From NCBI GenBank assembly GCA_947627505.1, contig CANQWG010000004.1, positions 1 through 61,212 on the forward strand: a stretch of 61,212 nucleotides of DNA. Reading direction: 5' to 3'. The stretch is from an uncultured Bacilli bacterium. GTDB taxonomy: Bacteria > Bacillota_I > Bacilli_A > RFN20 > CAG-449. Positions 3,480-59,505 of the stretch are shown piece by piece. The first letter of the stretch is position 1. The number at the start of each line of letters is the position of its first letter. The translations under genes were made by a program, and so were the position numbers. Below the pieces are notes generated by a model. That model was not told where the DNA came from. It ran no database searches and worked only from the letters and a program-made list of their open reading frames with translations.

Positions 3480-4286
3480 ATGAACGGATGGCTAATTTAC
3501 GATGAAATAGGGGCTAATCGTAACCGATGGTTCATCGATCGCTTGATAATGCTTGCTAAACAAAAAGGAATCAATTTGAAGCTCATATTAACTGCTGATA
3601 ATTGGAAGAACAATGATGAATTCACGAAGATTGATTTTGCTATTGTAAGAACCATTGATCCTTCGATAAATAGGTTTTTTGAAGATCTTGGTATTAGAAC
3701 TTTTAACAATTACGTTACTTCGTCAGTCGCTAACGATAAATGGAAAACATTTCAGGTGGCTAAAGGACTTTCAATCCCCACTATGGACACGGTATTGATC
3801 AGTGAAAAATTTAAACCATCAGTTTATCCGTTTGTACTAAAAAGTCGTAATGGACATGGCGGTAGTGAAGTGTATTTGATAAATGATGAATTTGAGTATC
3901 GAAAAAGACTTCAAAATATCAATCCGCAAAACTATATTGCCCAAAAAGTGAGCGACAAGATTGGTTTCGATATGCGAGTGTATGTTCTAAAAAATGAAAT
4001 TTTAGCGGCGATTTTGAGGCATTCATCTACCGATTTTCGCAGTAACTATTCATTAGGTGGCGAAGTTAGCGTCGCTCAAGTAGATAATGCCCAAACCCAA
4101 ATCGTCCAAAAGATAGTTTCTACTCTAAATTGCGATTTTGTCGGCATCGATTTTATAATGAATGATGAAACTTGGGTATTGAATGAAATCGAAGATGTCG
4201 TGGGGACAAGAATGCTTTATAAATGTACAGACATCGATGCGGGACAACTTTATATCGATTATATTTATGATGAAATGAGAAAATAG
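3480..4286 (+). CDS. RimK-family ATP-grasp ligase (paralogue 2, more divergent)
   Basis: 268 aa with the same architecture: VLKSRNGHGGSEV, AQKV, DMRVYVL, and FRSNYSLGG matching FRSNITNGG of paralogue 1. Confidence 0.65.
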   Translation: MNGWLIYDEIGANRNRWFIDRLIMLAKQKGINLKLILTADNWKNNDEFTKIDFAIVRTIDPSINRFFEDLGIRTFNNYVTSSVANDKWKTFQVAKGLSIPTMDTVLISEKFKPSVYPFVLKSRNGHGGSEVYLINDEFEYRKRLQNINPQNYIAQKVSDKIGFDMRVYVLKNEILAAILRHSSTDFRSNYSLGGEVSVAQVDNAQTQIVQKIVSTLNCDFVGIDFIMNDETWVLNEIEDVVGTRMLYKCTDIDAGQLYIDYIYDEMRK

Positions 4287-8083: not shown

Positions 8084-10658
8084 AGCAAAAAAGAGTGAAC
8101 AACCATCATTCACCGAAAATATTTTCGTCTCTACCATCGATGACGTTTTATCACAAGGATTTGGACGTTATTCTAAATACGTTCTTCAAGAAAGAGCGGT
8201 ACCTGATGTCCGCGATGGTCTAAAACCAGTTCAAAGAAGAATATTGTATACGATGTATCTTGAAGGAAATACATCAAATAAACCGACTCGTAAATGTGCG
8301 CGAACCGTCGGTCAAGTCATCGGGCGTTTTCATCCTCACGGCGATACGTCTGTCTATGAAGCGATGGTTCGTCTATCGCAAGATTGGAAAATGCGTATTC
8401 CTTTGATTGACTTTCAAGGAAATAATGGTTCTATCGACGGCGATTCGGCTGCGGCTTATCGTTATACCGAGGCGCGTTTAAGTGAAATCTCCGACAAATT
8501 AGTGCTTGATTTAAACAAAAACACCGTCGATATGGAACTCAATTTCGACGATCAAGAGTTAGAACCGGTCGTATTGCCGGCTCGTTTTCCTAATTTATTA
8601 GTCAATGGTTCTTCAGGTGTGGCTGTCGGTGCCTCGACGGATATTCCCCCACACAACCTTAGTGAGGTCGTCAAGGCCATAAATTATCGAATCAAACATC
8701 CGGATTGTCGTATCGAAGATCTTTTGAAATTTATTAAAGGCCCCGATTTTCCAACCGGTGGCGTCATTTTAAATCAAAGTGACTTTTTAAATATGTACAA
8801 AAGCGGCAAAGGCCTCATCAAATTGATGTCCAAAGCCGAAGTGATCGAAGACAAGAATATCAACCAAATCATCATCACTGAAATTCCTTATGGACGCGAT
8901 AAATCCGATTTGGTGTCCTCGATCGATAAATTTCGCTTTGCCAATAATTTAGACGCTATCATCGAAGTTCGCGATGAGACGGGGCAAGATGGTTTAAGAA
9001 TCGCAATTGATGTCAAAAAAGAGGCTGATCCTTACAATTTGTTGCGGTTTATTAAAAGCAAAGGCGTCTTATCGACCACGATTAAATATAATATGCTCGT
9101 CATCGATCACAATCGTCCGCGGACTTTAAACCTCGCGGAAGTGATCGATTGCTACGTCGAACACCAAATCGACGTCATTACCCGACGTTCCAAATACGAC
9201 CTTGATAAAATGTCGACGCGAGTTCATATCGTCGAAGGGTTAATCAAGGCGATTTCGATTCTCGATCAAGTGATAGAATTGATTCGTAAGAGCAAAGATA
9301 AAGCCGATGCCAAAGAAGGTTTGATTCATAAATTTGATTTTACTCCCGAACAAGCTGAAGCTTTATTGATGTTGCAACTTTATCGGTTATCGAATACCGA
9401 TGTGACAACTCTTATTGAGGAAGCCAAAAATTTGCATGCGTCGATCGATGATTTAAACGATCTTTTAAACAATCCGACGCGAATGGACAATTTAATTATC
9501 GACGATTTGACAAAGATCGCCGAATCTTACAAAGATCCACGGCGCACCAGCTTTGAAGAATTGACCTCGGAGGATACTTCAATTGATCACCGAGCCTTGG
9601 TCTTAAAAGAAGAGACAGTTATCGTTTTTACGCGCAACGGATATTTCAAGCGATGCCAAATGCGTTCTTATAACGCGGTGAGCGACCAATTGCCGGGCAT
9701 CAAAGACGGAGATGTGATTGTCGGTAGCGTCAAATGCTTTACAACCGATTATCTCCTTGCTTTCACTTCGCTTGGAAATTATCTTTTAATCCCGGTTTAC
9801 AAACTTTTCGACAATAAATGGAAAGAAGAGGGTAAACACATCAATGAGATTTCCTCTTTAGCTAATCAGGAAAAGATCGTCGGTGGTTTTGTTGTAAGCG
9901 AATTTATCGATGGCATCAATGTGGTGATGCTTTCAAAAAACAATCAAATCAAACGTTCTTCACTCAAAGAATTCGAAGGAACGCGGATTTCTAAGCCGGT
10001 CCGTTGCTTTAAACTCGCCCAAGACGATGAAATGGTCGCGGTGGTATCCACTTCCGGTAACAGCGATATATTAGTGCTAAATGCCGCCGGAACCGGCAGT
10101 TTCTTCAATGAGAATGAAATTCCTAAAGTCTCGCTTAAAGCTGGTGGGGTGAAGGCAATGAATCTAGGCAAAGATCAAGCTCCTTTAGCGGCTTTAATCG
10201 CATATTTACCAGAAGAGCGCTCTAAGTTGATGATCATCACCGATCGTCATGGTGCTAGAATCGTCGATCAATCTTCGATGGTACGCACCATTAGACCTGG
10301 CACTAAACAGGTGCTCTTTAAAACTTTCAACAGCGATCCGCAATCGGCGATTTATGCGACCAAGTGGTCTAAAAATCAAGAATCCAAGAGTTTAAGCGTC
10401 GTTCTTGACAACAATGTGGTCGTCAATCTTAATCTTGAAGAGTTGAAGCCACAACCTTTAGGCGGTTATTTAAAGACCAATCTTCAACTCGATGAAAAGA
10501 ATCCGCTTGTCGGGGTTCATAATTTCAAAGTCGATATCATCGACGAAAACACCAAGCCGTTAACGCCAGCAAGCGTCAAAAAAGTTAAAGAAGTAAAGCC
10601 TCAGGAAGAAGATTTTGAGCAAATAAGACTTTTTGATTTTGTCGACGATGACGATTAA
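8073..10658 (+). CDS. parC: DNA topoisomerase IV subunit A
   Basis: The N-terminal domain is type IIA A-subunit (RAVPDVRDGLKPVQRRILY, HPHGD, AAAYRYTEARL with the catalytic Tyr). I saw no GyrA-box (QRRGGKG-like). It overlaps the parE stop and has a long C-terminal tail ending DDDD. Confidence 0.8.
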   Translation: MSSKAKKSEQPSFTENIFVSTIDDVLSQGFGRYSKYVLQERAVPDVRDGLKPVQRRILYTMYLEGNTSNKPTRKCARTVGQVIGRFHPHGDTSVYEAMVRLSQDWKMRIPLIDFQGNNGSIDGDSAAAYRYTEARLSEISDKLVLDLNKNTVDMELNFDDQELEPVVLPARFPNLLVNGSSGVAVGASTDIPPHNLSEVVKAINYRIKHPDCRIEDLLKFIKGPDFPTGGVILNQSDFLNMYKSGKGLIKLMSKAEVIEDKNINQIIITEIPYGRDKSDLVSSIDKFRFANNLDAIIEVRDETGQDGLRIAIDVKKEADPYNLLRFIKSKGVLSTTIKYNMLVIDHNRPRTLNLAEVIDCYVEHQIDVITRRSKYDLDKMSTRVHIVEGLIKAISILDQVIELIRKSKDKADAKEGLIHKFDFTPEQAEALLMLQLYRLSNTDVTTLIEEAKNLHASIDDLNDLLNNPTRMDNLIIDDLTKIAESYKDPRRTSFEELTSEDTSIDHRALVLKEETVIVFTRNGYFKRCQMRSYNAVSDQLPGIKDGDVIVGSVKCFTTDYLLAFTSLGNYLLIPVYKLFDNKWKEEGKHINEISSLANQEKIVGGFVVSEFIDGINVVMLSKNNQIKRSSLKEFEGTRISKPVRCFKLAQDDEMVAVVSTSGNSDILVLNAAGTGSFFNENEIPKVSLKAGGVKAMNLGKDQAPLAALIAYLPEERSKLMIITDRHGARIVDQSSMVRTIRPGTKQVLFKTFNSDPQSAIYATKWSKNQESKSLSVVLDNNVVVNLNLEELKPQPLGGYLKTNLQLDEKNPLVGVHNFKVDIIDENTKPLTPASVKKVKEVKPQEEDFEQIRLFDFVDDDD

Positions 10659-48737: not shown

Positions 48738-49718
48738 TTAATTTAAATACAGAAATGATGAATGCTGGAAATCGATCTGATAGACGATAAGATCGCTTCC
48801 GCCACAATTTTCATGATCAAGTGTGACGGCGTTTATAGTATTGTTCCAATAGGTTTTAAAATAATAAATTAATTCTTTTAAATCGATGCAACATGAATAG
48901 ATGGTGTAGACACACCCTTGATTTTGATTTTTTACCGAACCTTTCAAGGGACTTACGGCGTCAAGGACATGAAAGAATTGTGCTACCGCTTCATCGTAAC
49001 TTTCGATTTGAAGACTATTACAGGTTAAAAAGCTCGCTTTGACAAACCGCGACGGCGAAGAAAAATCACCCGGAAGGCCTAATCCGCCCATCCCGTTTGA
49101 AAAAGGCATCAAATCGAGGGCTTGGCTAAATCGATTAGACGGGTATGCCGAAGTCAAATTGATATAATTGGCAATATTTTCCTGATGATAAGGAAATGGC
49201 GGATTATTGGTCATTACGTTGTACACATCATCGTAAACTTTAAGACCACTTTCAGTCGATTCGATGACTATCGATCGCTCGTTATCGGAAATCATCCAAT
49301 GTAATGGCACTGTCAACACGATCTCATCGAAACTTTTATCGACCAACTGTGTTTTTTTTATGATTTCTTTGACCTCTTGAATATTCTGACATTGTCTTAG
49401 AATGAATGGGATTATCTCAAATGGCGTGATGTTGACTTTGCTAGGATAAAACGGAAAATAATGCGAATTGCTCGGAAATTCTAAAGCCGCGATACAGAGT
49501 CCCTTTTCGTTTACCGCTTCAGCGTATAACGGATAATTTTTATAGACGGTCGCCATTCCTAGAATCGCTAAATGACGATCTTCAATTTCGCAATAATTGA
49601 ATTTAAACTGATAATTTCGCGGTGTAATCACGACCTTTTGCGCAAACATTTCGGCACTATCTAAAGTTCTTCCGAAAAATACTTGCTCTTTCCATTTCCA
49701 CCTAATCGCCGTACACAT
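48738..49718 (-). CDS. Choloylglycine hydrolase family (bile salt hydrolase / penicillin V acylase-like) Ntn hydrolase
   Basis: MCTAIRW... carries the nucleophile Cys2, taken from ATG 49718 behind an AGGTGA RBS. The longer track ORF (to 49997) overlaps the upstream gene and is rejected. Confidence 0.8.
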   Translation of the reverse strand: MCTAIRWKWKEQVFFGRTLDSAEMFAQKVVITPRNYQFKFNYCEIEDRHLAILGMATVYKNYPLYAEAVNEKGLCIAALEFPSNSHYFPFYPSKVNITPFEIIPFILRQCQNIQEVKEIIKKTQLVDKSFDEIVLTVPLHWMISDNERSIVIESTESGLKVYDDVYNVMTNNPPFPYHQENIANYINLTSAYPSNRFSQALDLMPFSNGMGGLGLPGDFSSPSRFVKASFLTCNSLQIESYDEAVAQFFHVLDAVSPLKGSVKNQNQGCVYTIYSCCIDLKELIYYFKTYWNNTINAVTLDHENCGGSDLIVYQIDFQHSSFLYLN

Positions 49719-49803
49719 ATAATCACCTAATAATGTATGTGCATCAAAAAAAAGAATTATGATAAGAAAACGGATAAAAAAAACTTCCTTTTCAGGAAGT
49801 TTT

Positions 49804-50268
49804 CTATTCATCGTAGTCGTCAAATTCATGTCTCTTTTTGCGTCTCTTTTTAAAGACCAAGAACGCGATAAGAGCCAAGATAACCCACAAACAGAGATAT
49901 GTGATTTCGTTGTTGATAATGTCAACGACAATTTGCGGTAAAGAAACAGATGACAATGAAGTTTTAATGAACTCGCAAATGATGGTGTTAACCACATCGA
50001 TTGGATGAGTTACAAGCGTAAGACCATAAGTGACATACGGCATATATCCATCGGTTTTACCAAAGAAATCTTTTAGTGCATCTAAATGAAGCACGAAATT
50101 TAAAATCGCCAAAAGCGCGATGAAATTGAAAAGTCCTGCAATCCAACTTCTAAAGCGACATACAAAGGATGAAAAGAAAATTGGAAGCAGCATCACGCCG
50201 ATGATGACTAAAGCTTGTAGAATATCAAGTGATTCAAACGGAAACACAACACCGAGAAGCATATTCAT
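49804..50268 (-). CDS. Small polytopic membrane protein, unknown function
   Basis: 154 aa with about 4 TM segments and a basic/acidic tail. It lies 67 nt downstream of the SMC-like gene. Confidence 0.45.
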   Translation of the reverse strand: MNMLLGVVFPFESLDILQALVIIGVMLLPIFFSSFVCRFRSWIAGLFNFIALLAILNFVLHLDALKDFFGKTDGYMPYVTYGLTLVTHPIDVVNTIICEFIKTSLSSVSLPQIVVDIINNEITYLCLWVILALIAFLVFKKRRKKRHEFDDYDE

Positions 50269-50335
50269 AATAATTTACCCACACTTTCATTTAGATTATA
50301 TTTTCTTTTAGCAATAAATGCAAGATATAAAATAT

Positions 50336-53300
50336 TTAAACACGGATTTCAAAGCGACCGACTTGAGAACGATTGTTATTTCTCGTCACGACCAAAGTTT
50401 CGTCGGCGATCTTCGAGATGTGTTGCACCTTATCTGGTGGTGCTGAAAGAATCACTTGAAGTCCGAATTTTTCAAGGATTGCAATTGCTTCGATAATTCT
50501 CGCGCTATCCATCTTTGAGAAAGCTTCGTCGAAGATCACAAGTCGTGTGCAATTAGAGGTGCTCTTACTACCATTGATACGATAAAGTTGCGAGAAAGAT
50601 GCCAAAATCGAAATATAGAACGGAGTCTGCGTCTCGCCCCCTGAAGCTTGATTGATCATGTAAGATAACGAATTGACGCGATCGCCTTTTTTCGAAAGTA
50701 AGTCAAACAACAGATAAGAACGATAATCGGTAAATTTAGCTACATTTTGTTCCAAAACCGCATTTTGATCGCGCGAATTAGAAACATCACCGATGGCTTT
50801 AAAGAGGCTATCCATCGTCTCTTTGTACTTTTCAAGATAAGTTTCATCATTGCCACTTGTCAAAAGCAGATCGTCCATAATCATGTTGTAGTAATCGAGA
50901 TATTCACTGCGTGGTTCGACGCGGAATTCATAGGTGTCTTCACCGAATTGCGAATCGCGAATCGCCTCATTTAGTTCCTCGATTCGGGCAATCGCCATAT
51001 TGATCGAAGTGTTAAGTTTATGAATAAAGTGATCTTTGAATTCTTTTGAAGCCTTTTCGTAAGCGTCTTGAATCTTTTCTTGATATTCCGGAAGTTTGAC
51101 GTCGCGGATGTTGATTAAATCGCGTTCGTAATCGTCATTGTTTTCGGCTTGTACATCGTAACTGAGGCGATAAGTGAGGACATAGTCGCGACGCAATTCA
51201 AACAAAGCCGCCTTCAGACTATTGATCTTATTTTGGGCTTTGATGTAAATTTCATCGTAACGTTCTCTTATCTGCGGTAATGAATCGCCAGTTTCCTCTT
51301 CGTTATGGAAAGTAACCATCGCCACATTGTTGACAAACTCTTGATCAAATTTTTCTTCTAGTTCTTTGAGCAAAGCAGAAGCAGTGTTCATTTCAAAAGG
51401 AATTTTTTCGTCATTGATATTTTGAATGGTGGCTTTTAAAGTACCCTTTTGCATTACCAATTCTTGAATCTCATTAGCGATATTTTCTAGATCGAGATTG
51501 ATCCGATTGATTTTCTCGTCGAGAACCGAAATTTCTGAAGAACCCGACTCTTCAAGTTCCGCTTCGTAAGTTTTTAAGTTACGGCGTAAACCTTCAAGAC
51601 TTTCAGCCTCATTTAAAGCAGCGGTGGCACTATTCAATTCGTTGTTGTTAATCACGTCTTGACCATTGACCTCTTGCAATAACGCGATCACCGTTCGATA
51701 AGTTTCGGCTAAATGTTCTTTTAAAGCCAGTTCTTCTTCGGTTTGCTTTAAACTCTCTTTTGAAATTTGGCGACCCAAAAGCGCGTATTTATAATTGCTT
51801 TCGGGAATCACAAATGAAGAGAAGTTTCGATAACCTTCACAGGTAGGAGTAATGCCACGACCTCTAGCACGAGCTTCGCTCAAATCGGCGCATTTGTAAA
51901 TGCGACCCATTAAGAAGTTGGTATAATCACGAGCCCCGTCATGGTCCGTTAAAATTTCTTCAGCCAAAGAATTGCGTTCCGCGATGAAATTTTGCTCATG
52001 TAATTTTTCACTGTCGACCAGCCCGGTTCGATAATAGTGATTGCGGCGCATGATTTCTGGTAAAATTCGATTGGCCGCATCGTAATACTCCTCTTCAACG
52101 AACATATTGAGTTTTTGCGAAGAGATAAAACCTTCGATAGCATTCACCCATTTTGGTGATTTGACATCGACCAAATCGGCGTAGATGTAAACTTTGATTT
52201 TTTTGCCATAATGATTGGAAAGCGCATTTTCGAGTTGATTGCGGACTTGAACTAATTGATAATCATAAAGTTTGCCGCCGATATCGCTATTAGCTTGTTG
52301 CTGTTTGGTATAATTGATATCTTGCACCAATGTCGCAAGATCTTTCTTCAAAGAAAAAGCCAATTCGCTACAGGCGCTTTTAAAAGCGATCGTCGCATCG
52401 CGGAAATCACCGATTACCTGCGGTTCGATATTTTCTTTCGTTTGAAGCACTTGGCGCAATTTGGAGGCAGTATCCCTAACATCTTTGCAAGCAGAAAGAA
52501 TCGCTTTAGAATCGATGCTTGACGTCAGTTGATCCTCTTTGAGACTTTCAAAGCAAGCTTCTACTTTATTCGCCAAATTATTAAATTCGTTGATATAGGA
52601 ACCGAATTTCTTTTGAATGTCGTTGATGCTTGCTTCAAGTCGTTCGATTTTCTCTTTGGTCCGCGTTCTTGAATTTTTCAAATCGGCGGTCAATTGATAA
52701 GCTCCGTTTCCAACTTTCGAAGCGATGTATTGTTCTTTTAAAGTGTTGAGTTCTTTGCTTTGATTTTCAAGTTCTTGAACTTCGCGATCGATTTCTTGAA
52801 GACGTTCCTTTGAAGCGGTGATATCATCGCGAAGCGTCTGTATCCGATTGAGATGCATTTGATAAGTCACACGTTTAGAAATGTAACTGGCTAGATTCAA
52901 TTCATCTTTTTTGCTAGCAAATTGATTGTAGACTTCTTGAATGTCTTCAAGTTTTTTGATTTTCACTTGCATAGCTTCCGCTTCAATTTCCAATTTTTTG
53001 TATTGGCGGATATTTTCCTGCATCACATCGATATTGATTTCGCTTGGAACATCACAAACATAATCGGTGATGAATTGTTCGATATTGGTGATCGGTTGAA
53101 AAGAGACTGCCTTTTTAAATAGCGAAAAATATTTATCGGACAAATTACCGAATTTCTTTTTGAGCAATTTTTGATATTGGGCGTTAGTTTCCGTAAAGAT
53201 AAAACGACCATCATAATTTTCTTTGAAGAATTCTAAAAGGGTCTCATATGACATCGGAACATCGTCAATCACGAAATTGTTGCTTGGGAATTCACTATCT

Positions 53301-53689
53301 AAAATGAAAAATTTGTGTTCTTCGCTACCATCGTCATAGACGTCAAAGACGATACCCATCGTGAAATCACAGTCTTCATAGTCATCGTGAAACTGCATCG
53401 CGATATAAGATGAAAAGCGACCGCTTCTTAAATAAGTGACACTCCCTTTTCCATCTCCCCCGGTTTGTCCCCGCAAGTAACTTTTCAAAGTACGACCGGA
53501 TTTTTCATTAGCGGCTTTGTTAAACGATCTTCCGGTAGTATCGCCAAGCAAAACCACTTGCATCGCATCGATGAGAGTCGATTTACCGGAAGCATTCTCA
53601 CCGGTCAAAAAGTTAACTTTACCGAACTCCATGGTTACATTTTGAAAATAATGCCAGTTAATTAGGCGCATTTTTGTTAATAATTTCAT
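50336..53689 (-). CDS. jetC: SMC-like ATPase, JetC/MksB-like
   Basis: 1117 aa. The N-terminal head has Walker A (LTGENASGKSTLIDA). A very long coiled-coil region rich in E/K/L/Q follows. The C-terminal head has SGGETQ (signature) and VIFDEAFSKMD (Walker B). Confidence 0.75.
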   Translation of the reverse strand: MKLLTKMRLINWHYFQNVTMEFGKVNFLTGENASGKSTLIDAMQVVLLGDTTGRSFNKAANEKSGRTLKSYLRGQTGGDGKGSVTYLRSGRFSSYIAMQFHDDYEDCDFTMGIVFDVYDDGSEEHKFFILDSEFPSNNFVIDDVPMSYETLLEFFKENYDGRFIFTETNAQYQKLLKKKFGNLSDKYFSLFKKAVSFQPITNIEQFITDYVCDVPSEINIDVMQENIRQYKKLEIEAEAMQVKIKKLEDIQEVYNQFASKKDELNLASYISKRVTYQMHLNRIQTLRDDITASKERLQEIDREVQELENQSKELNTLKEQYIASKVGNGAYQLTADLKNSRTRTKEKIERLEASINDIQKKFGSYINEFNNLANKVEACFESLKEDQLTSSIDSKAILSACKDVRDTASKLRQVLQTKENIEPQVIGDFRDATIAFKSACSELAFSLKKDLATLVQDINYTKQQQANSDIGGKLYDYQLVQVRNQLENALSNHYGKKIKVYIYADLVDVKSPKWVNAIEGFISSQKLNMFVEEEYYDAANRILPEIMRRNHYYRTGLVDSEKLHEQNFIAERNSLAEEILTDHDGARDYTNFLMGRIYKCADLSEARARGRGITPTCEGYRNFSSFVIPESNYKYALLGRQISKESLKQTEEELALKEHLAETYRTVIALLQEVNGQDVINNNELNSATAALNEAESLEGLRRNLKTYEAELEESGSSEISVLDEKINRINLDLENIANEIQELVMQKGTLKATIQNINDEKIPFEMNTASALLKELEEKFDQEFVNNVAMVTFHNEEETGDSLPQIRERYDEIYIKAQNKINSLKAALFELRRDYVLTYRLSYDVQAENNDDYERDLINIRDVKLPEYQEKIQDAYEKASKEFKDHFIHKLNTSINMAIARIEELNEAIRDSQFGEDTYEFRVEPRSEYLDYYNMIMDDLLLTSGNDETYLEKYKETMDSLFKAIGDVSNSRDQNAVLEQNVAKFTDYRSYLLFDLLSKKGDRVNSLSYMINQASGGETQTPFYISILASFSQLYRINGSKSTSNCTRLVIFDEAFSKMDSARIIEAIAILEKFGLQVILSAPPDKVQHISKIADETLVVTRNNNRSQVGRFEIRV

Positions 53690-53698
53690 AATGGCCTC

Positions 53699-54313
53699 CT
53701 AAAATTCTTCCCCTTCGAAGTTTTGAATATCTTCAAAGATTTTGTTGATTCTTTCATTGTCGATTACATAGAGAATCGATGGAAGAATATAAAATTGCAA
53801 ATTGCGATCGCGATAATCGCCGGAAATTCTAGCGATAATATTGTGCTGTTCCAAAAATCGGTAAGCAGTGGCAAAAGTAACCTGGGGAACCTTCTTATCA
53901 CTTCGCACTAGCGATTTGTCATTAAGAATTTTATTGACCTCAGATGCAGTAAAATATACTTCGGAGGTCGTTTGATTTTTTTCTTTTTCGCATTCATAGG
54001 CGTAACGTAAACAATAGATAATAAGCGACGTCATAAAATCGAGACGAATGCGATTATCTTGAAATTCATTGCTGATTATGATTACTCCAAGTCGAGAATC
54101 TTTTTCAACAATCCACCCCGTGTAAGCCAAATATTCGCGAATTAAATCGATGTTTCGTTCGACAAAATAATAATCGCGATTGGATTTTATAATTTTGCTA
54201 TGACGATCATAGTTTTCACGGAGTAAGAATGATTTAAGCATCAATTCGTTGACGATTCGCGCAAAATCGTCACGTTCATGTTCAGATAATTTGTTGTATG
54301 TTTCTTCGAACAT
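53699..54313 (-). CDS. jetB: JetB/MksE-like (DUF4194-like) subunit
   Basis: 204 aa, taken from ATG 54313 behind an AAGGGAG RBS. The pattern ARIVNELMLKSFLLRE...IREYLAYTGWIVEKDSRLGVI resembles DUF4194. It is sandwiched between the kleisin-like and SMC-like genes. Confidence 0.6.
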   Translation of the reverse strand: MFEETYNKLSEHERDDFARIVNELMLKSFLLRENYDRHSKIIKSNRDYYFVERNIDLIREYLAYTGWIVEKDSRLGVIIISNEFQDNRIRLDFMTSLIIYCLRYAYECEKEKNQTTSEVYFTASEVNKILNDKSLVRSDKKVPQVTFATAYRFLEQHNIIARISGDYRDRNLQFYILPSILYVIDNERINKIFEDIQNFEGEEF

Positions 54314-55745
54314 TCTTATTCTCCCTTCTTTCAAAAGTGTAGTTTGGCATCGAAAATTTTTCATTGACGAATTGGTCGATCGTCTTTTGATAATCGATGC
54401 TATAAAACGAATTGTAATCGTTGGATTTGACAGTACCAAGAATCAAATAGATAAAGTCATTGATGTTTTTAATATCGATTTCAGAGACCGTAACTTTATC
54501 GTTATCACCGAAAGCATCATCCATGAAATCGAGGACTTTATCGTCAGTAAACATCAAGTCTTCCTCATCGATTATCGAAGAGAAATCGTTGCTTTCGCTT
54601 TCTTCTTCGATCGTTAAAGGTGCAGTTTCAATGCGTTCACTGCGGTGAATCGGTTTTTGTAAACTATCAGCATCAAAATAACATTGACGAAAAAGCGTGA
54701 CCGAATTAGTGATATCGCGAATGATCGTCGGGTATGATTGTCCTTTTTCGTGACGTTCACCGGCTTCGGTCTTGGCAACCGCGAGAAAAATCGTCTCCAG
54801 TTTTCCTTTGATCGATTTATCATTGTTATTCAAATAAATCACTTTTTCAGCGCTCGCTTTAGTGTAAGCCGCGCGAGTCTTATCAATTTCATTCATTTCT
54901 AGCGATAAACGTGAATAAGTATCGCGGATATAGTTGATTTTATCGATAATTTGATTTTGAAGTTCCTCTAGTGTTGCTTCAGGTTGCTCGACTTTAGCTT
55001 GTTCAGCAATCTTTTCTAAAACACTTGGAGTAATCATCCATCGTTTAAGGATGATATTGATCGGTTCACTATAAAGAATTATCGAATCCGTAGTCTTTAA
55101 CGGGTGATATAAAGGATCCAAGACATCTTCTCGTGCAATATCAAAGTGCTGTCTTAATACATCGTTTGGTGTAAAAATCGTCGACAGTTGATTTTGAAAC
55201 ACGCGGATTGAATGATCTAATGTCGTCATTTGAAGCGAAAGATCTTTAGTGCGTGTCACAGCGTCATTCAATGCTTTATACATGTATTCGGGTTGTTCTT
55301 CATCGGCATTTTTCAATTCGATGTAAGTGGAATGAACGTTGCTTACGTAACGTGTCGAAGACGAATCGACGAATTCATAAATGATTTTAAGCAATGCTAC
55401 CGAATAACTGGGTACCAAAACATACTCGACTCCCGTTTTAAAATCAACATCAACCACAATCCATCCGGTATCGACCAAACGTCTAAAGACTAAATTGATT
55501 TTTGATTGTAAAGTGGGTTGAAAGATGACGTCGTCATCGACATCACCCTCTACCGAAACATCGAAAGTCTCCAAATCTTTATCGACTCGCCCCTTTAAAA
55601 GATCAATGTAGTCAGATTTACGGATTTTATTGCGATATATTGTAAGACAATCATATAATGCCACTAAAGCAACACCATAGATATTCTTATTTTTAGATGA
55701 CAAAATCGAGAAGAAATTCTCAGGAATTTTAGCAAATAAATTCAT
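54282..55745 (-). CDS. jetA: JetA/MksF-like kleisin candidate
   Basis: 487 aa and first gene of the three-gene operon (AGGAGG RBS). Assignment rests on size and position, plus an acidic linker before the C-terminal domain. I saw no unambiguous motif. Confidence 0.45.
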   Translation of the reverse strand: MNLFAKIPENFFSILSSKNKNIYGVALVALYDCLTIYRNKIRKSDYIDLLKGRVDKDLETFDVSVEGDVDDDVIFQPTLQSKINLVFRRLVDTGWIVVDVDFKTGVEYVLVPSYSVALLKIIYEFVDSSSTRYVSNVHSTYIELKNADEEQPEYMYKALNDAVTRTKDLSLQMTTLDHSIRVFQNQLSTIFTPNDVLRQHFDIAREDVLDPLYHPLKTTDSIILYSEPINIILKRWMITPSVLEKIAEQAKVEQPEATLEELQNQIIDKINYIRDTYSRLSLEMNEIDKTRAAYTKASAEKVIYLNNNDKSIKGKLETIFLAVAKTEAGERHEKGQSYPTIIRDITNSVTLFRQCYFDADSLQKPIHRSERIETAPLTIEEESESNDFSSIIDEEDLMFTDDKVLDFMDDAFGDNDKVTVSEIDIKNINDFIYLILGTVKSNDYNSFYSIDYQKTIDQFVNEKFSMPNYTFERRENKNVRRNIQQII

Positions 55746-55795: not shown

Positions 55796-55836
55796 TAAAA
55801 AGTAATTTATTTTGCAATTTTCGATAGTTATTTTAA
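55796..55836. repeat. 41-bp direct repeat, left copy
   Basis: TAAAAAGTAATTTATTTTGCAATTTTCGATAGTTATTTTAA is identical to 59465-59505. It lies 51-91 nt upstream of the jetA ATG. Confidence 0.95.
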
Positions 55837-56150
55837 CGGCTTAATTAAAATAAAAAAATCAATTTTTAATTTGCCCACCAATAGTAGATTGATCCAATCA
55901 ATATTAAAACAATTTTACTCATAAAATTAAGAAAAAAAATATTATCGACGTATAAATCACCAACGTATTAATTGTGACCACAACAAGGATATTTTCGCAT
56001 ATCAAAACAAAAGTTATCTTTAATGTCTTTCACAGAAAAATGACATTAAAAAAACTTACAACCATCGACGTTATATGCATTAATATGATTGTAATAAATA
56101 ATGTGCTTTAAATTTCAAATCATACTTCAATATAGTTTTGCAAGAAAAAA

Positions 56151-57518
56151 TTAAATTCGTTCTTTTAAATTAACGGCTATCAACGCTTCTTCCAATTTAT
56201 CTTTAATACTTTTTATAAAACCTTCCTGCCCTAGAGAAACTATTTCATCATAAGTCCATTTATACTCAAGCAGTATTTCTGGTATGACAAGTACTGGATT
56301 TTTTTTACCCGTCAAATGCTCCTTTAGTGATAAAAAAGTTTGTTCATCAATCACTTTATCGTCATATAATTTTCGATAGAGATCTATCGCCTCTTGTGGC
56401 GTGCAAGTCTTTATCAAATTAATATTGTTTTTCCAATATGCAATATATTGATCTATAGAAGAAACAATCTTATGGTCATATGATGTATATGATTTTTTAA
56501 TGTTTCTTCCTCGTTTATACTGGAGGTGTAAAGTTTCACACAAAAAATCAATATGATCCTTTGAAAGTTCCAATCCATTAATTTCGCTCATCATTGAACG
56601 CGCACTTGATTGTTTAGGACCAAAAGCTAAAGATAAACTTATTGAATCACTTTTTATTATCAGATTAACTTCTCCAAGCCATTTATAATTTACTTTGCAT
56701 CTCCAAGTATTATACCTTCTTTTATCTATTGCGCCATTATGAACTTGTGAAAGAATTTTTTCTCCAAAAGGAATTGTTAATTTTTCTCTAATGCTTTCAT
56801 CTGATTGACAAGCAACAATAAAATTATCCAAACCAATATATCCTAAGATGGTCAAGTATTCGACAAATTGATTAGTGGTGAACGTATCAAGTGTAAGAAA
56901 CAAATCAACTATTTCGCTGTATTTTTTATAAATAACATTACTTTTGTTTTCCGTTATTAACAAACTTTTTTCAATGTGATTATTAATTTGATCGGGATTT
57001 AGATTGTGTAATTTGTTTTCTAAGGCAATAATGTATTGAGGATTTTCATCAATATAAATCAAAATCCATCCATCCGGAATCGAGCCATCTTTTTTGTTTT
57101 GTAGATAATCTTTAACTTCGTTTTCAGTTGCTTCCTTACATTCTCTTTCATCTTTTATTGTTATAGATAATTCATTGTAAATTGCTTTGTACAATTCTTT
57201 TTTGTTTTTAGTATCTTGACCACTAAATCCCCAACATTTACCCGTGGGACTAAATCCAAACATTATTCTATTATCGATAGGGAAACTTTTAATTCGATCT
57301 TCAGCTGGTTTTTTTTGAAGATAACAATCAACTTTTAAATTTCCCTCTTTCAAATCAATTGAAAACAATTTAGTAATAACTTTTCGCTTCAAATCATCAG
57401 ATAAACTGTCAATCGAATTAATAAAAGCTTTTGTTATATTATTTTCCAAATGTGGTTTTCCCTCATATTGCCAAAAAATATTCAAATGTGGATCTCTAAA
57501 ACTTTTATAATTTAACAT
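56151..57518 (-). CDS. PD-(D/E)xK-type nuclease-motif protein with a C-terminal domain of unknown function
   Basis: 455 aa with a GAGGAGA RBS. The N-terminal half shows a helix with conserved E (HLENNITKAF), then SIPDGWILIY...(13 aa)...IIALENKLH. That gives the PD...ExK arrangement of restriction-endonuclease-fold enzymes. No motif is recognised in residues ~200-455. Confidence 0.45.
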   Translation of the reverse strand: MLNYKSFRDPHLNIFWQYEGKPHLENNITKAFINSIDSLSDDLKRKVITKLFSIDLKEGNLKVDCYLQKKPAEDRIKSFPIDNRIMFGFSPTGKCWGFSGQDTKNKKELYKAIYNELSITIKDERECKEATENEVKDYLQNKKDGSIPDGWILIYIDENPQYIIALENKLHNLNPDQINNHIEKSLLITENKSNVIYKKYSEIVDLFLTLDTFTTNQFVEYLTILGYIGLDNFIVACQSDESIREKLTIPFGEKILSQVHNGAIDKRRYNTWRCKVNYKWLGEVNLIIKSDSISLSLAFGPKQSSARSMMSEINGLELSKDHIDFLCETLHLQYKRGRNIKKSYTSYDHKIVSSIDQYIAYWKNNINLIKTCTPQEAIDLYRKLYDDKVIDEQTFLSLKEHLTGKKNPVLVIPEILLEYKWTYDEIVSLGQEGFIKSIKDKLEEALIAVNLKERI

Positions 57519-57703
57519 TTTTTTCTCCTCTATTATTTTTGCGGGTTTTGAAGCATATTATTTTTCTAATAGATTTTTATCTAATTTCTAAAAATCATTT
57601 ATCAAATACGCAATATAATAAGTACCCTTAAATTTTTTATCATTATTTTACATTTGCTTTCTATTGCATCTTTTTATTTTGCTAGAATTGCAAACAATAC
57701 AAT

Positions 57704-57847
57704 TCATTTTTTATTACCTTTGACATATGGTAAATTTGAAGTTCTAACCGCTCTTTTTACAAGTTTTGACTGTTCTGCCAAATATTTGTTTCTATCCATG
57801 GGTCTATTAAGACTATCAATAAAAGCATTTGCAAGTTTTTTAAGCAT
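57704..57847 (-). CDS. Unlisted 47-aa basic ORF between the WYL gene and the nuclease-like gene
   Basis: MLKKLANAFIDSLNRPMDRNKYLAEQSKLVKRAVRTSNLPYVKGNKK, preceded by AAGGAG with an 8-nt spacer before the ATG. Confidence 0.45.
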   Translation of the reverse strand: MLKKLANAFIDSLNRPMDRNKYLAEQSKLVKRAVRTSNLPYVKGNKK

Positions 57848-57897
57848 AAATAAGCTCCTTGTTCATAATTTCATCTCTAAACGCAGCAAATTTTTAT

Positions 57898-58890
57898 TTA
57901 CTTTTTATATTTTTCTATTTGCGATGTTAGATGGTTTATAAATTTATCGATAAGTGATTTAGGTTCTAATAATTTAAATTCATCCCCGTATTGATTAATC
58001 CAATAAAACAATGCAGTTTCATCGCATTTCACTTTCGCATAGAGTTTACCATCTTTCTCGAAAATTTTTGCCTTTTTACCAAACCAATCATTTATATACT
58101 GAATTGCCCAAGATTTTTCTATAAGAATTAGAGCGTCAACAACTTCATTTGCAAACAAATAAATATGTTCATTTAAATATTTACTGATATCAAAATTTTC
58201 TATTCCATTGAGCGTATTTAACGGCTTAATTGTCCATTCTTCTTCGATTTTGGTTTCTATCATATAATCAATACGAAATGTCTGCAATGGTCTATATTTT
58301 TCTCGATAGTTGCATAATAAATAATATCTTCCAAAATTATTAATCAAAAAATACGGAGACACGATATATCGATATCCATTTCTTCGTACACAAGGATTAC
58401 CATTTTTGTCATAAGTCAAATACTTAAATGATATGCGCTTATTAGCTTTAATGGCATCCTCTATCAACTCAATATTATAGAAAATATCATGATTAGTTGT
58501 TCTTATAAGTTCATCACTTTTATAGATGTACGAGTAATTTTTTCTTTGATATTTACTTAAACACGAATTAACTTTCTGTGATAAATTTATAGCTTGCTTC
58601 CCTGTTATAGCCTTTGAAGAAAAAATTGCATCATTAATAAATCTCACTTCAGCAAGATCAAAGGTCCTAGAAAGCAGAGCGAAGCCACCTTTCGAACCTC
58701 TAACAATATCATAGTCAAGTTCTTCTAACAAATTCAAAGAAGAGCCTATACTTTTTCTCTCTAATTCGATTCCATATTGACGAGAAATTATACTCGCTAT
58801 TTCCATTTGTGTTAAATAATGTTCTTCATCGGTAAATTCATGTAAAACCTTAAGAACTAGAAGTATTGAGCTCTTTTTATTTTGCAGCAT
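57898..58890 (-). CDS. HTH + WYL-domain transcriptional regulator (BrxR/CapW-like architecture)
   Basis: An N-terminal winged HTH (ILLVLKVLHEFTDEEHYLTQMEIASII), a central WYL-type segment (RYIVSPYFLINNFGRYYLLCNY...LQTFRIDYM) and a C-terminal WCX-like extension. Confidence 0.7.
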   Translation of the reverse strand: MLQNKKSSILLVLKVLHEFTDEEHYLTQMEIASIISRQYGIELERKSIGSSLNLLEELDYDIVRGSKGGFALLSRTFDLAEVRFINDAIFSSKAITGKQAINLSQKVNSCLSKYQRKNYSYIYKSDELIRTTNHDIFYNIELIEDAIKANKRISFKYLTYDKNGNPCVRRNGYRYIVSPYFLINNFGRYYLLCNYREKYRPLQTFRIDYMIETKIEEEWTIKPLNTLNGIENFDISKYLNEHIYLFANEVVDALILIEKSWAIQYINDWFGKKAKIFEKDGKLYAKVKCDETALFYWINQYGDEFKLLEPKSLIDKFINHLTSQIEKYKK

Positions 58891-58955
58891 ACATTAACTC
58901 TCTTTTTTGTTTTTTAACTTAAAAAAATATTAATAAAAAATTAATGTCGCAAAAA

Positions 58956-59141
58956 TTATTTGTTCAAGAGCATTGTTAGAAGATTTCCTTGACCAATTTT
59001 ACGGCCAGAGGCATCTCTTGTGACCTTGCCATCAAATTCACCTAACTTGCGTCCACTAGCGTCTCTAATGATTTGTCTCGTTCCGTAATCTTGGATTTCA
59101 CCAATTTTACGACCAGTTCTGTCTCTTAAAACTTGATTCAT
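58956..59141 (-). CDS. 61-aa tandem-repeat miniprotein
   Basis: Three copies of RD(R/A)(T/S)GRK(I/L)G: RDRTGRKIGE, RDASGRKLGE, RDASGRKIGQ. A strong AAGGAGAG RBS lies upstream. Confidence 0.5.
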   Translation of the reverse strand: MNQVLRDRTGRKIGEIQDYGTRQIIRDASGRKLGEFDGKVTRDASGRKIGQGNLLTMLLNK

Positions 59142-59161
59142 TTTTTACTCTCCTTTTTTTA

Positions 59162-59290
59162 TTATTTTATCATATCAAGTGTCCGATTTTTAGTACTTGT
59201 AATACTCCTATCAGTTATATTCATTAATAAACCATCATCAACTAATGCATGCCTAAAGTAAACATAATTAAAAGCGAGGTACTTTTTCAT
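59162..59290 (-). CDS. Possible 42-aa ORF at the head of the cassette operon
   Basis: MKKYLAFNYVYFRHALVDDGLLMNITDRSITSTKNRTLDMIK. It has a weak GGAAG RBS and ends 20 nt before the 61-aa ORF. Confidence 0.2.
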   Translation of the reverse strand: MKKYLAFNYVYFRHALVDDGLLMNITDRSITSTKNRTLDMIK

Positions 59291-59464
59291 TTTTTTACTT
59301 CCATAATTAATTAATGTCAATAAGAATGCTTTTTGTATATAAATTATAATTTATGCCAAATATAAATGGTTGTTTTAATAGTAAAAATATTAATTTATAT
59401 TTTCGTGCTTCATTAAACATTTAAGTTTATGAATTTTTAAAAATATTAAATTCCGTAATAGAGG

Positions 59465-59505
59465 TAAAAAGTAATTTATTTTGCAATTTTCGATAGTTAT
59501 TTTAA
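59465..59505. repeat. 41-bp direct repeat, right copy
   Basis: Identical to 55796-55836. Confidence 0.95.

Follow-up and report, generated by a model that had tools for sequence, protein, structure and literature searches.

A candidate WYL-regulated, defense-type cassette with a nuclease-like effector in an uncultured Bacilli bacterium

The low-GC block and its boundaries

The DNA analyzed here, referred to as the window, is a stretch of 61,212 nucleotides from an uncultured Bacilli bacterium (contig CANQWG010000004.1 of assembly GCA_947627505.1, positions 1 to 61,212). Near its end lies a block of low GC content that encodes a 455-amino-acid protein with a nuclease-like motif, a regulator with WYL and WCX domains and two small basic proteins, and that ends next to the first gene of a Wadjet-like operon. 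We consider it a credible, so far undescribed WYL-regulated cassette of defense type, with a mechanism that we propose below in conditional terms. The genes and boundaries of the block, in the order in which the genes are read, are as follows.

59465..59505, no strand: upstream copy of a 41-bp direct repeat (TAAAAAGTAATTTATTTTGCAATTTTCGATAGTTATTTTAA on the plus strand), one boundary of the insert, adjoining the gene of a 148-amino-acid membrane protein
59162..59290, minus strand: open reading frame (ORF) of 42 amino acids, or of 52 if it begins at the TTG at 59320 (the longest ORF there)
58956..59141, minus strand: 61-amino-acid protein, basic (isoelectric point, pI, 10.6), the leader gene of the cassette
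57898..58890, minus strand: WYL-WCX regulator of 330 amino acids (Pfam WYL and WCX, PADLOC WYL)
57704..57847, minus strand: 47-amino-acid protein, basic (pI 10.6), with an AAGGAG ribosome-binding site 7 nucleotides before its ATG
56151-57518, minus strand: 455-amino-acid protein, as given in the ORF list
55796..55836, no strand: downstream copy of the 41-bp direct repeat, the other boundary of the insert, 51 nucleotides upstream of the jetA start codon

All ORFs that an earlier note on this DNA had listed for the block are present, on the minus strand and where it had placed them. The note had also called the block more AT-rich than its surroundings, and the GC content is indeed 0.24-0.29 across 55.5-59.5 kb versus 0.34-0.42 on both sides. 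The two copies of the 41-bp repeat are exact and lie 3,669 bp apart (no such pair in 100 shuffles); they bracket exactly the low-GC block and coincide with the drop in GC content. An independent SPAdes contig (L024; L-numbers are the labels of the related loci compared) spans both copies, and in short-k assemblies of this organism the contigs end within the repeat. Flanking direct repeats and deviant composition, both expected of an integrated mobile element, are present here. The repeat pair resembles an att-type duplication. No integrase, transposase or recombinase was found within the block, among its ORFs or by Pfam. An empty site was not found by exact-protein look-ups of JetA and of the 148-amino-acid neighbor or by an exact DNA scan of JGI metagenomes, a search that is uninformative, as the repeat interrupts the contigs and the JGI metagenomes do not contain the pattern. 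Around the other copies of the cassette no flanking repeats were found, indicating that such cassettes do not in general carry the 41-bp repeat. Rfam and tRNA scans found nothing, and a generic scan for promoters and terminators was uninformative in the AT-rich DNA of the block.

The 455-amino-acid protein and its family

The 455-amino-acid protein is the constant element of the module. A profile searched exhaustively against 1.84 billion representatives (50% identity) recovered 680 of them at E ≤ 1e-3; of these, 269 pass E ≤ 1e-10 and 91 pass E ≤ 1e-30. The hosts are uncultured gut and rumen Bacilli, Erysipelotrichaceae, Clostridia, Lachnospiraceae and Acidaminococcaceae. A cultured strain, Trichococcus ilyis DSM 22150, has one member, and another comes from a Heimdallarchaeota bin. 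A second, word-indexed homology search with the diverse alignment brought no further reach and no Pfam-annotated relative. Proteins were scanned against Pfam, NCBIfam, PADLOC and PHROGs, and profiles also against PDB sequences. Neither the 455-amino-acid protein nor more than 70 of its relatives match a family in these four libraries, and profiles from two conservation alignments (A1 and A2) found nothing relevant to it among PDB sequences, in agreement with the earlier remark that it maps to no named family. A weak match to SHOCT_2 appears in 5 of 36 members. The protein divides into two domains, the first of which carries the motif.

56823..57518, minus strand: N-terminal domain, residues 1-232, a candidate metal-dependent nuclease domain, from conservation and an AlphaFold model
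57444-57446 (E25), 57072-57074 (D149), 57018-57020 (E167) and 57012-57014 (K169), minus strand: motif residues, coordinates computed
56151..56822, minus strand: C-terminal domain, residues 233-455 plus the stop codon, of alpha/beta type with a SHOCT-like helical hairpin at about residues 374-402

The motif consists of E25, then P148-D149, 17 residues and E167-x-K169, with the ExK followed by Q177, N180 and H181. The earlier note had recognized this PD-(D/E)xK-type signature; E, PD and ExK are all present and conserved, and the spacing is 17 residues, not the 13 it had counted. Across the 53 sequences of alignments A1, A2 and A3, which reach down to about 20-21% identity, E167, K169 and Q177 never vary, and conservation of E25 and D149 is 90% or higher. 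The nuclease-like motif of the family is far beyond chance. AlphaFold2 modeled the full chain with a predicted local distance difference test score (pLDDT) of 92.3, with 91.3 for residues 1-232 and above 90 for the C-terminal domain. The modeled N-terminal domain begins with a helix at 25-37, which has E25 at its start, followed by strands 61-67 and 84-90 and a helical insert at 106-140; next is strand 150-156, at the beginning of which D149 stands, and after it strand 159-168, whose end carries E167-x-K169; helix 175-185, bearing Q177, N180 and H181, and strand 195-199 complete the series. This predicted order of strands and helices fits that expected of a PD-(D/E)xK core. Because the model matches no solved fold, the PD-(D/E)xK assignment rests on the conserved E25/D149/E167/K169 and on the order of the elements, and we therefore speak of a putative nuclease, a proposal well motivated by motif and model. 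The C-terminal domain accompanies the N-terminal domain across the whole family and shows weak partial similarity to YbjN, 2a8e and TtfA (Foldseek E 0.07-0.5). hhalign comparisons of the family with the NERD and AAA_14/DUF4143 neighbor families gave noise, no better than negative controls.

The WYL regulator, its palindrome and its partner genes

The regulator matches Pfam WYL (PF13280) with an E value of 6e-8 (33 bits against a cut-off of 21.8) and the PADLOC WYL model at 1e-24, while its WCX match (E 2.8e-4, 21.6 bits) falls just under the cut-off of 23.9. A profile built from 13 orthologues was compared with solved structures and found DriD at an E value of about 1e-6 and PafBC at 0.02; profile positions 186-325 align to the WYL domain and C-terminal region of DriD (E 1e-6). 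No BrxR or CapW chain was matched by the same profile at E ≤ 1. About 100 residues at the N-terminus are strongly conserved among orthologues and presumably form a helix-turn-helix (HTH), with no Pfam HTH match. The protein had been described as an HTH-WYL regulator of the BrxR/CapW type; its WYL and WCX domains agree with that description, and by sequence it stands nearer DriD and PafBC. WYL regulators co-localize with defense islands (PMC9122601), and single-stranded DNA (ssDNA) is the WYL ligand of DriD, PafBC and CapW (PMC9186387, PMC11804915, PMC11662680).

Comparison with about 80 loci from genomes and metagenomes, which fall into 44 clusters at 90% identity of the 455-amino-acid protein, ties the two genes together. 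In 20 of the 44 clusters the gene of the 455-amino-acid protein has a WYL gene nearby on its own strand, a link that the earlier note had proposed to look for in other genomes, and in 13 the WYL gene overlaps it or ends at most 60 nucleotides upstream. The two proteins also co-diverge (r = 0.71 over 105 pairs), a correlation reached by none of 2000 permutations in a Mantel test. When the neighbors in 35 representative loci were clustered into families, three recurrent partners emerged and only these: the WYL regulator (17 loci), a soluble FtsH-like AAA+ protein (10) and the 61-amino-acid protein (7). The module as the earlier note had drawn it holds for the recurrent pair of WYL regulator and 455-amino-acid protein; its "three miniproteins" do not survive as a set, the 47-amino-acid protein being sporadic, the 61-amino-acid protein non-specific and the 42-amino-acid ORF probably spurious.

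The upstream regions of the cassettes share a palindrome, GTCC-N6-10(A-rich)-GGAC, of which TGTCC-TAAAAAC-GGGACA is a typical copy. The 1.05 Mb of DNA fetched from related loci contains 28 perfect palindromes, 24 of them on the coding strand and 37-95 nucleotides upstream of the starts of mini47, WYL or AAA genes (a count that takes in four in L088-91). None was found in loci where the gene of the 455-amino-acid protein stands alone or in WYL-less loci where the 61-amino-acid gene precedes GmrSD. The corresponding sites are the following.

59181..59196, minus strand: candidate WYL operator, GTAC-TAAAAATC-GGAC, with one mismatch to the palindrome, about 40 nucleotides upstream of the start codon of the 61-amino-acid protein
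59169..59177, minus strand: extended -10-like box TGaTATGAT, directly downstream of the candidate operator, a putative operon promoter read from the sequence
L004:1605-1620 and 4184-4199, L048:6803-6818 and 9384-9399, L016:8953-8968, L001:8371-8386: palindrome copies in relatives, adjoining extended -10 boxes

In L004 the palindrome abuts an extended -10 box (GGGACAtcTGcTATAAT) with the same geometry as in the window. Judged from sequence and position, the palindrome is likely the operator of this WYL clade. One regulator would then control the 61-amino-acid gene, the pair of WYL regulator and 455-amino-acid protein and, in relatives, also the FtsH-like gene.

In the 61-amino-acid protein, three repeats of beta-hairpin type (RD..GRK[IL]G) are followed by a C-terminal helix that is hydrophobic. 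The protein resembles Bflower_2 with an E value of 0.001 (19.4 bits against a Pfam cut-off of 38) and Bflower with 0.11; we know of no function for beta-flower proteins. Its family is tightly conserved (68 clusters, 52-87% identity) and reaches beyond the cassette. In L085-87 the gene stands immediately before a GmrSD_N (DUF262-type) gene, with housekeeping genes around them (L085:5001-7080), in L092-94 it precedes GmrSD_N in a prophage, with the gene of the terminase large subunit on one side and the portal gene on the other (L092:5001-7024), and in L088-91 the cassette of 61-amino-acid, WYL and 455-amino-acid genes is followed by a full GmrSD gene (L088:5001-9940). The WYL-less loci that combine the gene with GmrSD have an ordinary TTGACT...TATAAT promoter and no palindrome. 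Since it heads both kinds of cassette, the 61-amino-acid gene behaves as a portable leader gene of defense cassettes, which supports a defense role of the pair of WYL regulator and 455-amino-acid protein. The tandem-repeat protein of the earlier note is accordingly real, with three repeats, and not specific to the module, as it also leads GmrSD-type cassettes. In L004, a 290-nucleotide tandem duplication (98% identical copies; L004:604-1183) lies just upstream of the region of the 61-amino-acid gene and runs into it.

The 47-amino-acid protein has homologues in L003/L004, L028/L048 and L049 (BLASTP, 45-52% identity, E 5e-8 to 2e-7); they belong to only two other cassette lineages, where the gene sits between the 61-amino-acid gene and the WYL gene, not after the latter. 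It matches no family in the four libraries. The gene is a real but sporadic accessory, and the basic ORF with its AAGGAG sequence 7 nucleotides before the ATG is as the earlier note had described it. The ORF of 42 or 52 amino acids has no homologue except in identical copies of the contig and no library match, and the candidate operator and the -10 box lie inside it; it is for these reasons probably not a gene. The reading frame that the earlier note had put forward as a possible gene is present, and is probably promoter DNA.

The FtsH-like partner combines AAA and Peptidase_M41 domains, is mostly 408-435 amino acids long and has weak PADLOC similarity to IetA (E 2e-8 to 5e-19). Among 10 sequences checked, 9 have Walker A, 9 the HEAGH zinc site and 5 a strict Walker B. 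Its place in the cassette varies: the order may be WYL, 455-amino-acid gene, AAA; or AAA, WYL, 455-amino-acid gene; or, in L031, the 455-amino-acid gene, a further gene, WYL and AAA.

L048:9443-10678, L004:4221-5522, L016:11425-12663, L036:11576-12838, L054:5150-6568, L055:2375-3682: FtsH-like genes of related loci

Decayed FtsH-like AAA fragments remain in L002 and L010. In the window neither an FtsH-like gene nor a remnant of one was found, suggesting that the window carries a reduced version of the cassette. The rearranged locus L031 (L031:10001-14885) comprises a homologue of the 455-amino-acid protein, a protein with DUF6884 and GIY-YIG_2 domains (PADLOC PDC-M57A, 1e-26), a WYL regulator and an FtsH-like AAA protein without HExxH, and is flanked by genes of a 1197-amino-acid SIR2_2 protein and of DUF4238, NERD and PLDc proteins. 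Members of the family without WYL have upstream genes of their own, encoding 80, 115 and 274 amino acids (L095:214-1791) or 286 and 109 amino acids (L036:8678-9921), with no family match; a homologue of the 80-amino-acid protein adjoins the pair of WYL and 455-amino-acid genes in L033 (L033:11347-11544). As general partners the 274/115/80- and 286/109-amino-acid genes were rejected, being lineage-specific. Frameshifted or split copies occur as well, of the WYL gene in L007 and of the gene of the 455-amino-acid protein in L018 and L019, and fit the frequent decay that is typical of defense genes.

The wider neighborhoods of the 455-amino-acid family hold SIR2_2, ThsA-like, DUF4238, SLFN/AlbA_2, NERD, PLDc, PDC-M57A and type I HsdR genes, toxin-antitoxin genes (HipA, HigB, MazE, HepT/MNT) and genes of mobile elements (a large serine recombinase, IS110, MobL). 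Searched with PADLOC, the 121 nearest unrelated neighbors matched 268 models, PDC-S01 7 times, with further matches to GajB, PbeA, PsyrT, PglW, DruE, DrmD, DpdE, PD-T7-3 and PDC-S56 and to GmrSD. The control, 47 ordinary genes of the window, matched 52 models, of which the 25 listed belong mostly to one AbiEi-like protein and the rest are mainly generic ATPase-type. Homologues of the 455-amino-acid protein therefore do lie near defense, toxin-antitoxin and mobile-element genes when compared with this control. The earlier note had named two computational outcomes that would speak against its defense module, a place for the protein in a well-characterized non-defense family and homologues without enrichment near defense genes; neither was found. 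One ORF of the window within 1-47000 matches PADLOC AbiEi models (best 7.7e-61), suggesting another defense or toxin-antitoxin element elsewhere on the contig.

The block lies directly upstream of a Wadjet-like operon, as the earlier note had it: JetA, JetB and JetC come next (PADLOC 1.5e-104, 2.4e-63 and E = 0, respectively). In this region (48738-55745 of the window), JetC is followed by a 154-amino-acid ORF without a match (49804-50268) and then by a choloylglycine/bile-salt hydrolase (CBAH). JetD was not detected after JetC, and none is among the matches listed (25 of 52 models) for the 47 other ORFs of the window; this JetABC operon without a detectable JetD may be a Wadjet in decay or else a condensin of the MksBEF-like kind. 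Of the roughly 80 related loci, none but copies of this contig has JetA or JetC with the 455-amino-acid family. Membership of the 455-amino-acid protein in Wadjet was rejected, since Jet genes never accompany its family elsewhere. Its adjacency to Wadjet is coincidental, an example of how adjacency to a known system can be so.

Proposed mechanism, rival readings and comparison with known systems

We propose that the WYL regulator, probably a dimer, binds the palindromic site that abuts the extended -10 promoter before the 61-amino-acid gene. Its binding would set the expression of a single operon comprising the genes of the 61-amino-acid protein, the WYL regulator, the 47-amino-acid protein and the 455-amino-acid protein. 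ssDNA arising from phage replication or DNA damage would bind the WYL domain, switch the regulator and raise expression, as in DriD, PafBC and CapW. The 455-amino-acid protein would then cut nucleic acid at a metal site formed by E25/D149/E167/K169 of its N-terminal domain, either the DNA of the invader or, as abortive infection, that of the host, and its C-terminal alpha/beta domain with the SHOCT-like hairpin may govern assembly or the choice of target. The 61-amino-acid beta-hairpin-repeat protein would be a portable leader common to other defense cassettes, and the 47-amino-acid protein an optional accessory; in many relatives the palindrome would also govern a soluble FtsH-like AAA+ zinc protease, the version in the window being probably a reduced one.

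What the sequences show is the linkage of the genes, the co-divergence of the two proteins, the conserved palindrome, the conserved motif, the surroundings of defense and mobile-element genes and the marks of insertion. We infer the ligand of the WYL domain, the direction of regulation, the nuclease activity and the defense phenotype of the cassette, its defense function from gene context. That the block at 55796-59505 (about 3.7 kb) is a horizontally acquired, self-regulating cassette of defense type, with the 455-amino-acid protein as effector and the WYL-WCX protein as switch, is in our estimate evenly balanced. A broader claim is put forward more tentatively, as possible but short of probable: the 455-amino-acid protein may found a family of immune effectors (at least 680 clusters, in Firmicutes and possibly an archaeon) whose N-terminal domain would have diverged too far in fold to resemble any solved structure, and which together with an ssDNA-sensing WYL regulator, the FtsH-like protease and the 61-amino-acid leader would form a new multi-gene system under one operator, reduced in the window. 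The pairing of a WYL regulator and a nuclease-like effector within a defense island is a known arrangement. The effector family, the co-evolving regulator and operator, the FtsH-like partner and the portable 61-amino-acid leader are undescribed in the libraries and literature searched.

Several observations weigh against the reading as a WYL-switched defense cassette. About half of the loci of the 455-amino-acid family have neither a WYL nor an AAA gene, meaning that control by WYL is optional. In the window itself, 379 nucleotides holding the 47-amino-acid gene part the WYL gene from that of the 455-amino-acid protein, in contrast to the tight coupling elsewhere; the operator there is degenerate, with its one mismatch, and has no second of its kind in the block (shuffling predicts 0.17), and no copy of the palindrome precedes the WYL gene or the gene of the 455-amino-acid protein. 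The enrichment of defense neighbors is semi-quantitative only and runs in the same direction as the gene-by-gene contexts. A tblastn search of annotated phages and plasmids gave no match to the 455-amino-acid family. As for the proposed nuclease, no profile ties the family to any PD-(D/E)xK Pfam family, and Foldseek found no nuclease and nothing significant with the full model against PDB and the viral BFVD, nor anything significant with the N-terminal domain against PDB (in PDB, every E value was at least 0.07 with the full chain and 0.68 with the domain). The restriction-endonuclease fold that the earlier note had read from the motif was accordingly not borne out by Foldseek.

PD-(D/E)xK domains with large insertions can escape fold and profile searches. 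The 455-amino-acid protein carries a helical insert of 45 residues in its N-terminal domain, and the spacing and placement of its residues are canonical for PD-(D/E)xK (E in the first helix, PD at the start of a strand, ExK at the end of its hairpin partner), with the ExK followed by a helix that bears a conserved Q. These points speak against the alternative that the protein is no nuclease at all and that E/D/E/K form another catalytic or ligand site in a new fold, such as a nucleotide- or metal-binding sensor. Two confident models without a structural neighbor among the many solved PD-(D/E)xK enzymes, together with sequence profiles that give no nuclease link, keep a modest chance for this alternative; a nuclease call made from a motif may simply escape verification by current fold search. 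A second possibility, compatible with the defense cassette, is that the WYL protein acts not solely, or not chiefly, as a transcription factor but physically binds the 455-amino-acid protein and gates it on an ssDNA or nucleotide ligand, in the way that the WYL-like KELA gates KELB, the Shedu nuclease. In 13 clusters the two genes overlap or have only a few nucleotides between them, suggestive of translational coupling, their proteins co-diverge, and in KELShedu a WYL-like protein and a PD-(D/E)xK nuclease encoded 3 bp apart do form a complex (PMC12577705). We nevertheless consider it unlikely, given a protein built like the DNA-binding WYL-WCX regulators and conserved in its N-terminal region, the conserved palindrome close to the promoter, the half of the family that has no WYL and the 379 nucleotides that leave the genes of the window uncoupled.

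The remaining alternatives concern the role of the module. The closest solved relatives of the regulator, DriD and PafBC, control DNA-damage responses (PMC9186387, PMC11804915), and some loci adjoin ordinary genes (guaA/guaB, gltX), so that the 455-amino-acid protein could be a WYL-controlled repair or processing nuclease of a housekeeping DNA-damage response like the genes of those regulons, not part of an immune system. A patchy, strain-variable distribution, the low GC content and flanking repeats of the window copy, neighbors that are mobile-element and defense genes, a 61-amino-acid leader common to GmrSD-type restriction genes and a prophage moron site, and frequent pseudogenized copies (L007, L018 and L019; AAA fragments in L002 and L010) make this distinctly unlikely. 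An addiction module that stabilizes the island, with the 455-amino-acid protein as toxin and a small basic protein or the WYL protein as antitoxin, would be in keeping with the small basic proteins of the operon, with the toxin-antitoxin genes (HipA, HigB, MazE, HepT/MNT) frequent among the neighbors and with the mobile appearance of the block. The miniproteins, however, are not constant partners (61-amino-acid protein in 7 of 35 loci, 47-amino-acid protein in 3 clusters), the 61-amino-acid gene also precedes unrelated GmrSD genes, and half of the family loci are solo, hard to reconcile with an unneutralized toxin; we hold such a module to be quite improbable, noting that toxin-antitoxin function and defense by abortive infection are not cleanly separable. 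Finally, the 455-amino-acid protein might replace the missing JetD of the adjacent operon, as that operon keeps JetA, JetB and JetC intact, JetD is not among the matches listed for the 61-kb window and a nuclease-like gene stands directly upstream of jetA. With a Jet gene near none of the other 43 non-redundant clusters of the family, and with a cassette that is a separate low-GC insert bounded by the 41-bp repeat, this is very unlikely indeed.

If the reading as a WYL-switched defense cassette is correct, a sizeable unnamed family would join the bacterial immune effectors, one that is common in uncultured gut and rumen Firmicutes, whose defense is poorly charted. The cassette would also be a natural case of a WYL regulator, its operator and its target co-evolving, which could help to learn what WYL domains sense in infection, and it would offer two unexplained parts that can be tested: the FtsH-like protease under the same operator, and the 61-amino-acid protein that also heads GmrSD-type genes.

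Among known systems, the cassette is most readily set beside BrxR in BREX and CapW in CBASS, where a WYL-WCX regulator likewise heads a defense-type operon with a palindrome, here a candidate operator, at its promoter (PMC9122601, PMC9122588, PMC11662680); a location in defense islands and ssDNA or DNA damage as the likely signal are further likenesses. It differs in an effector that belongs to no described system and in a regulator that is nearer DriD/PafBC by sequence; moreover, its regulator and effector mostly have overlapping genes and diverge together, a tighter link than that of an exchangeable regulator module. The DriD and PafBC regulons are controlled by the closest solved relatives of its regulator, WYL transcription factors that are activated by ssDNA and whose binding sites abut the -10 region. 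Those regulators control chromosomal genes of repair and the cell cycle in Caulobacter and Actinobacteria, whereas here the unit is a mobile cassette of two to five genes in gut and rumen Firmicutes, among defense genes. Shedu and KELShedu also combine an effector with a nuclease motif and an extra regulatory domain, and KELShedu has a WYL-like partner encoded 3 bp upstream and found in complex with it (PMC12577705). The present family has no match to DUF4263/SduA at E ≤ 1 (Pfam, PADLOC), its nuclease-like motif is N-terminal, and its partner is a 330-amino-acid WYL-WCX regulator, unlike KELA, a WYL-like protein of 111 amino acids.

Two further likenesses concern partner proteins. In relatives, though not in the window, an AAA+ protein is linked to the gene of the 455-amino-acid protein, recalling the pairing of the AAA+ protein McrB with the PD-(D/E)xK protein McrC in McrBC and that of the ATPase IetA with the protease IetS in IetAS; the partner here, in contrast, is an FtsH-like protein with AAA and Peptidase_M41 domains, and there is no homology to McrB, McrC or IetS. 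The link between beta-flowers and defense cassettes is unreported in the literature searched, and the match of the 61-amino-acid protein is below the Pfam cut-off. With its repeats bearing a D-x-x-G tip and its hydrophobic C-terminal helix, this leader protein is nonetheless like the beta-flower "half-flower" proteins (PF21784-6; PMC10584680).

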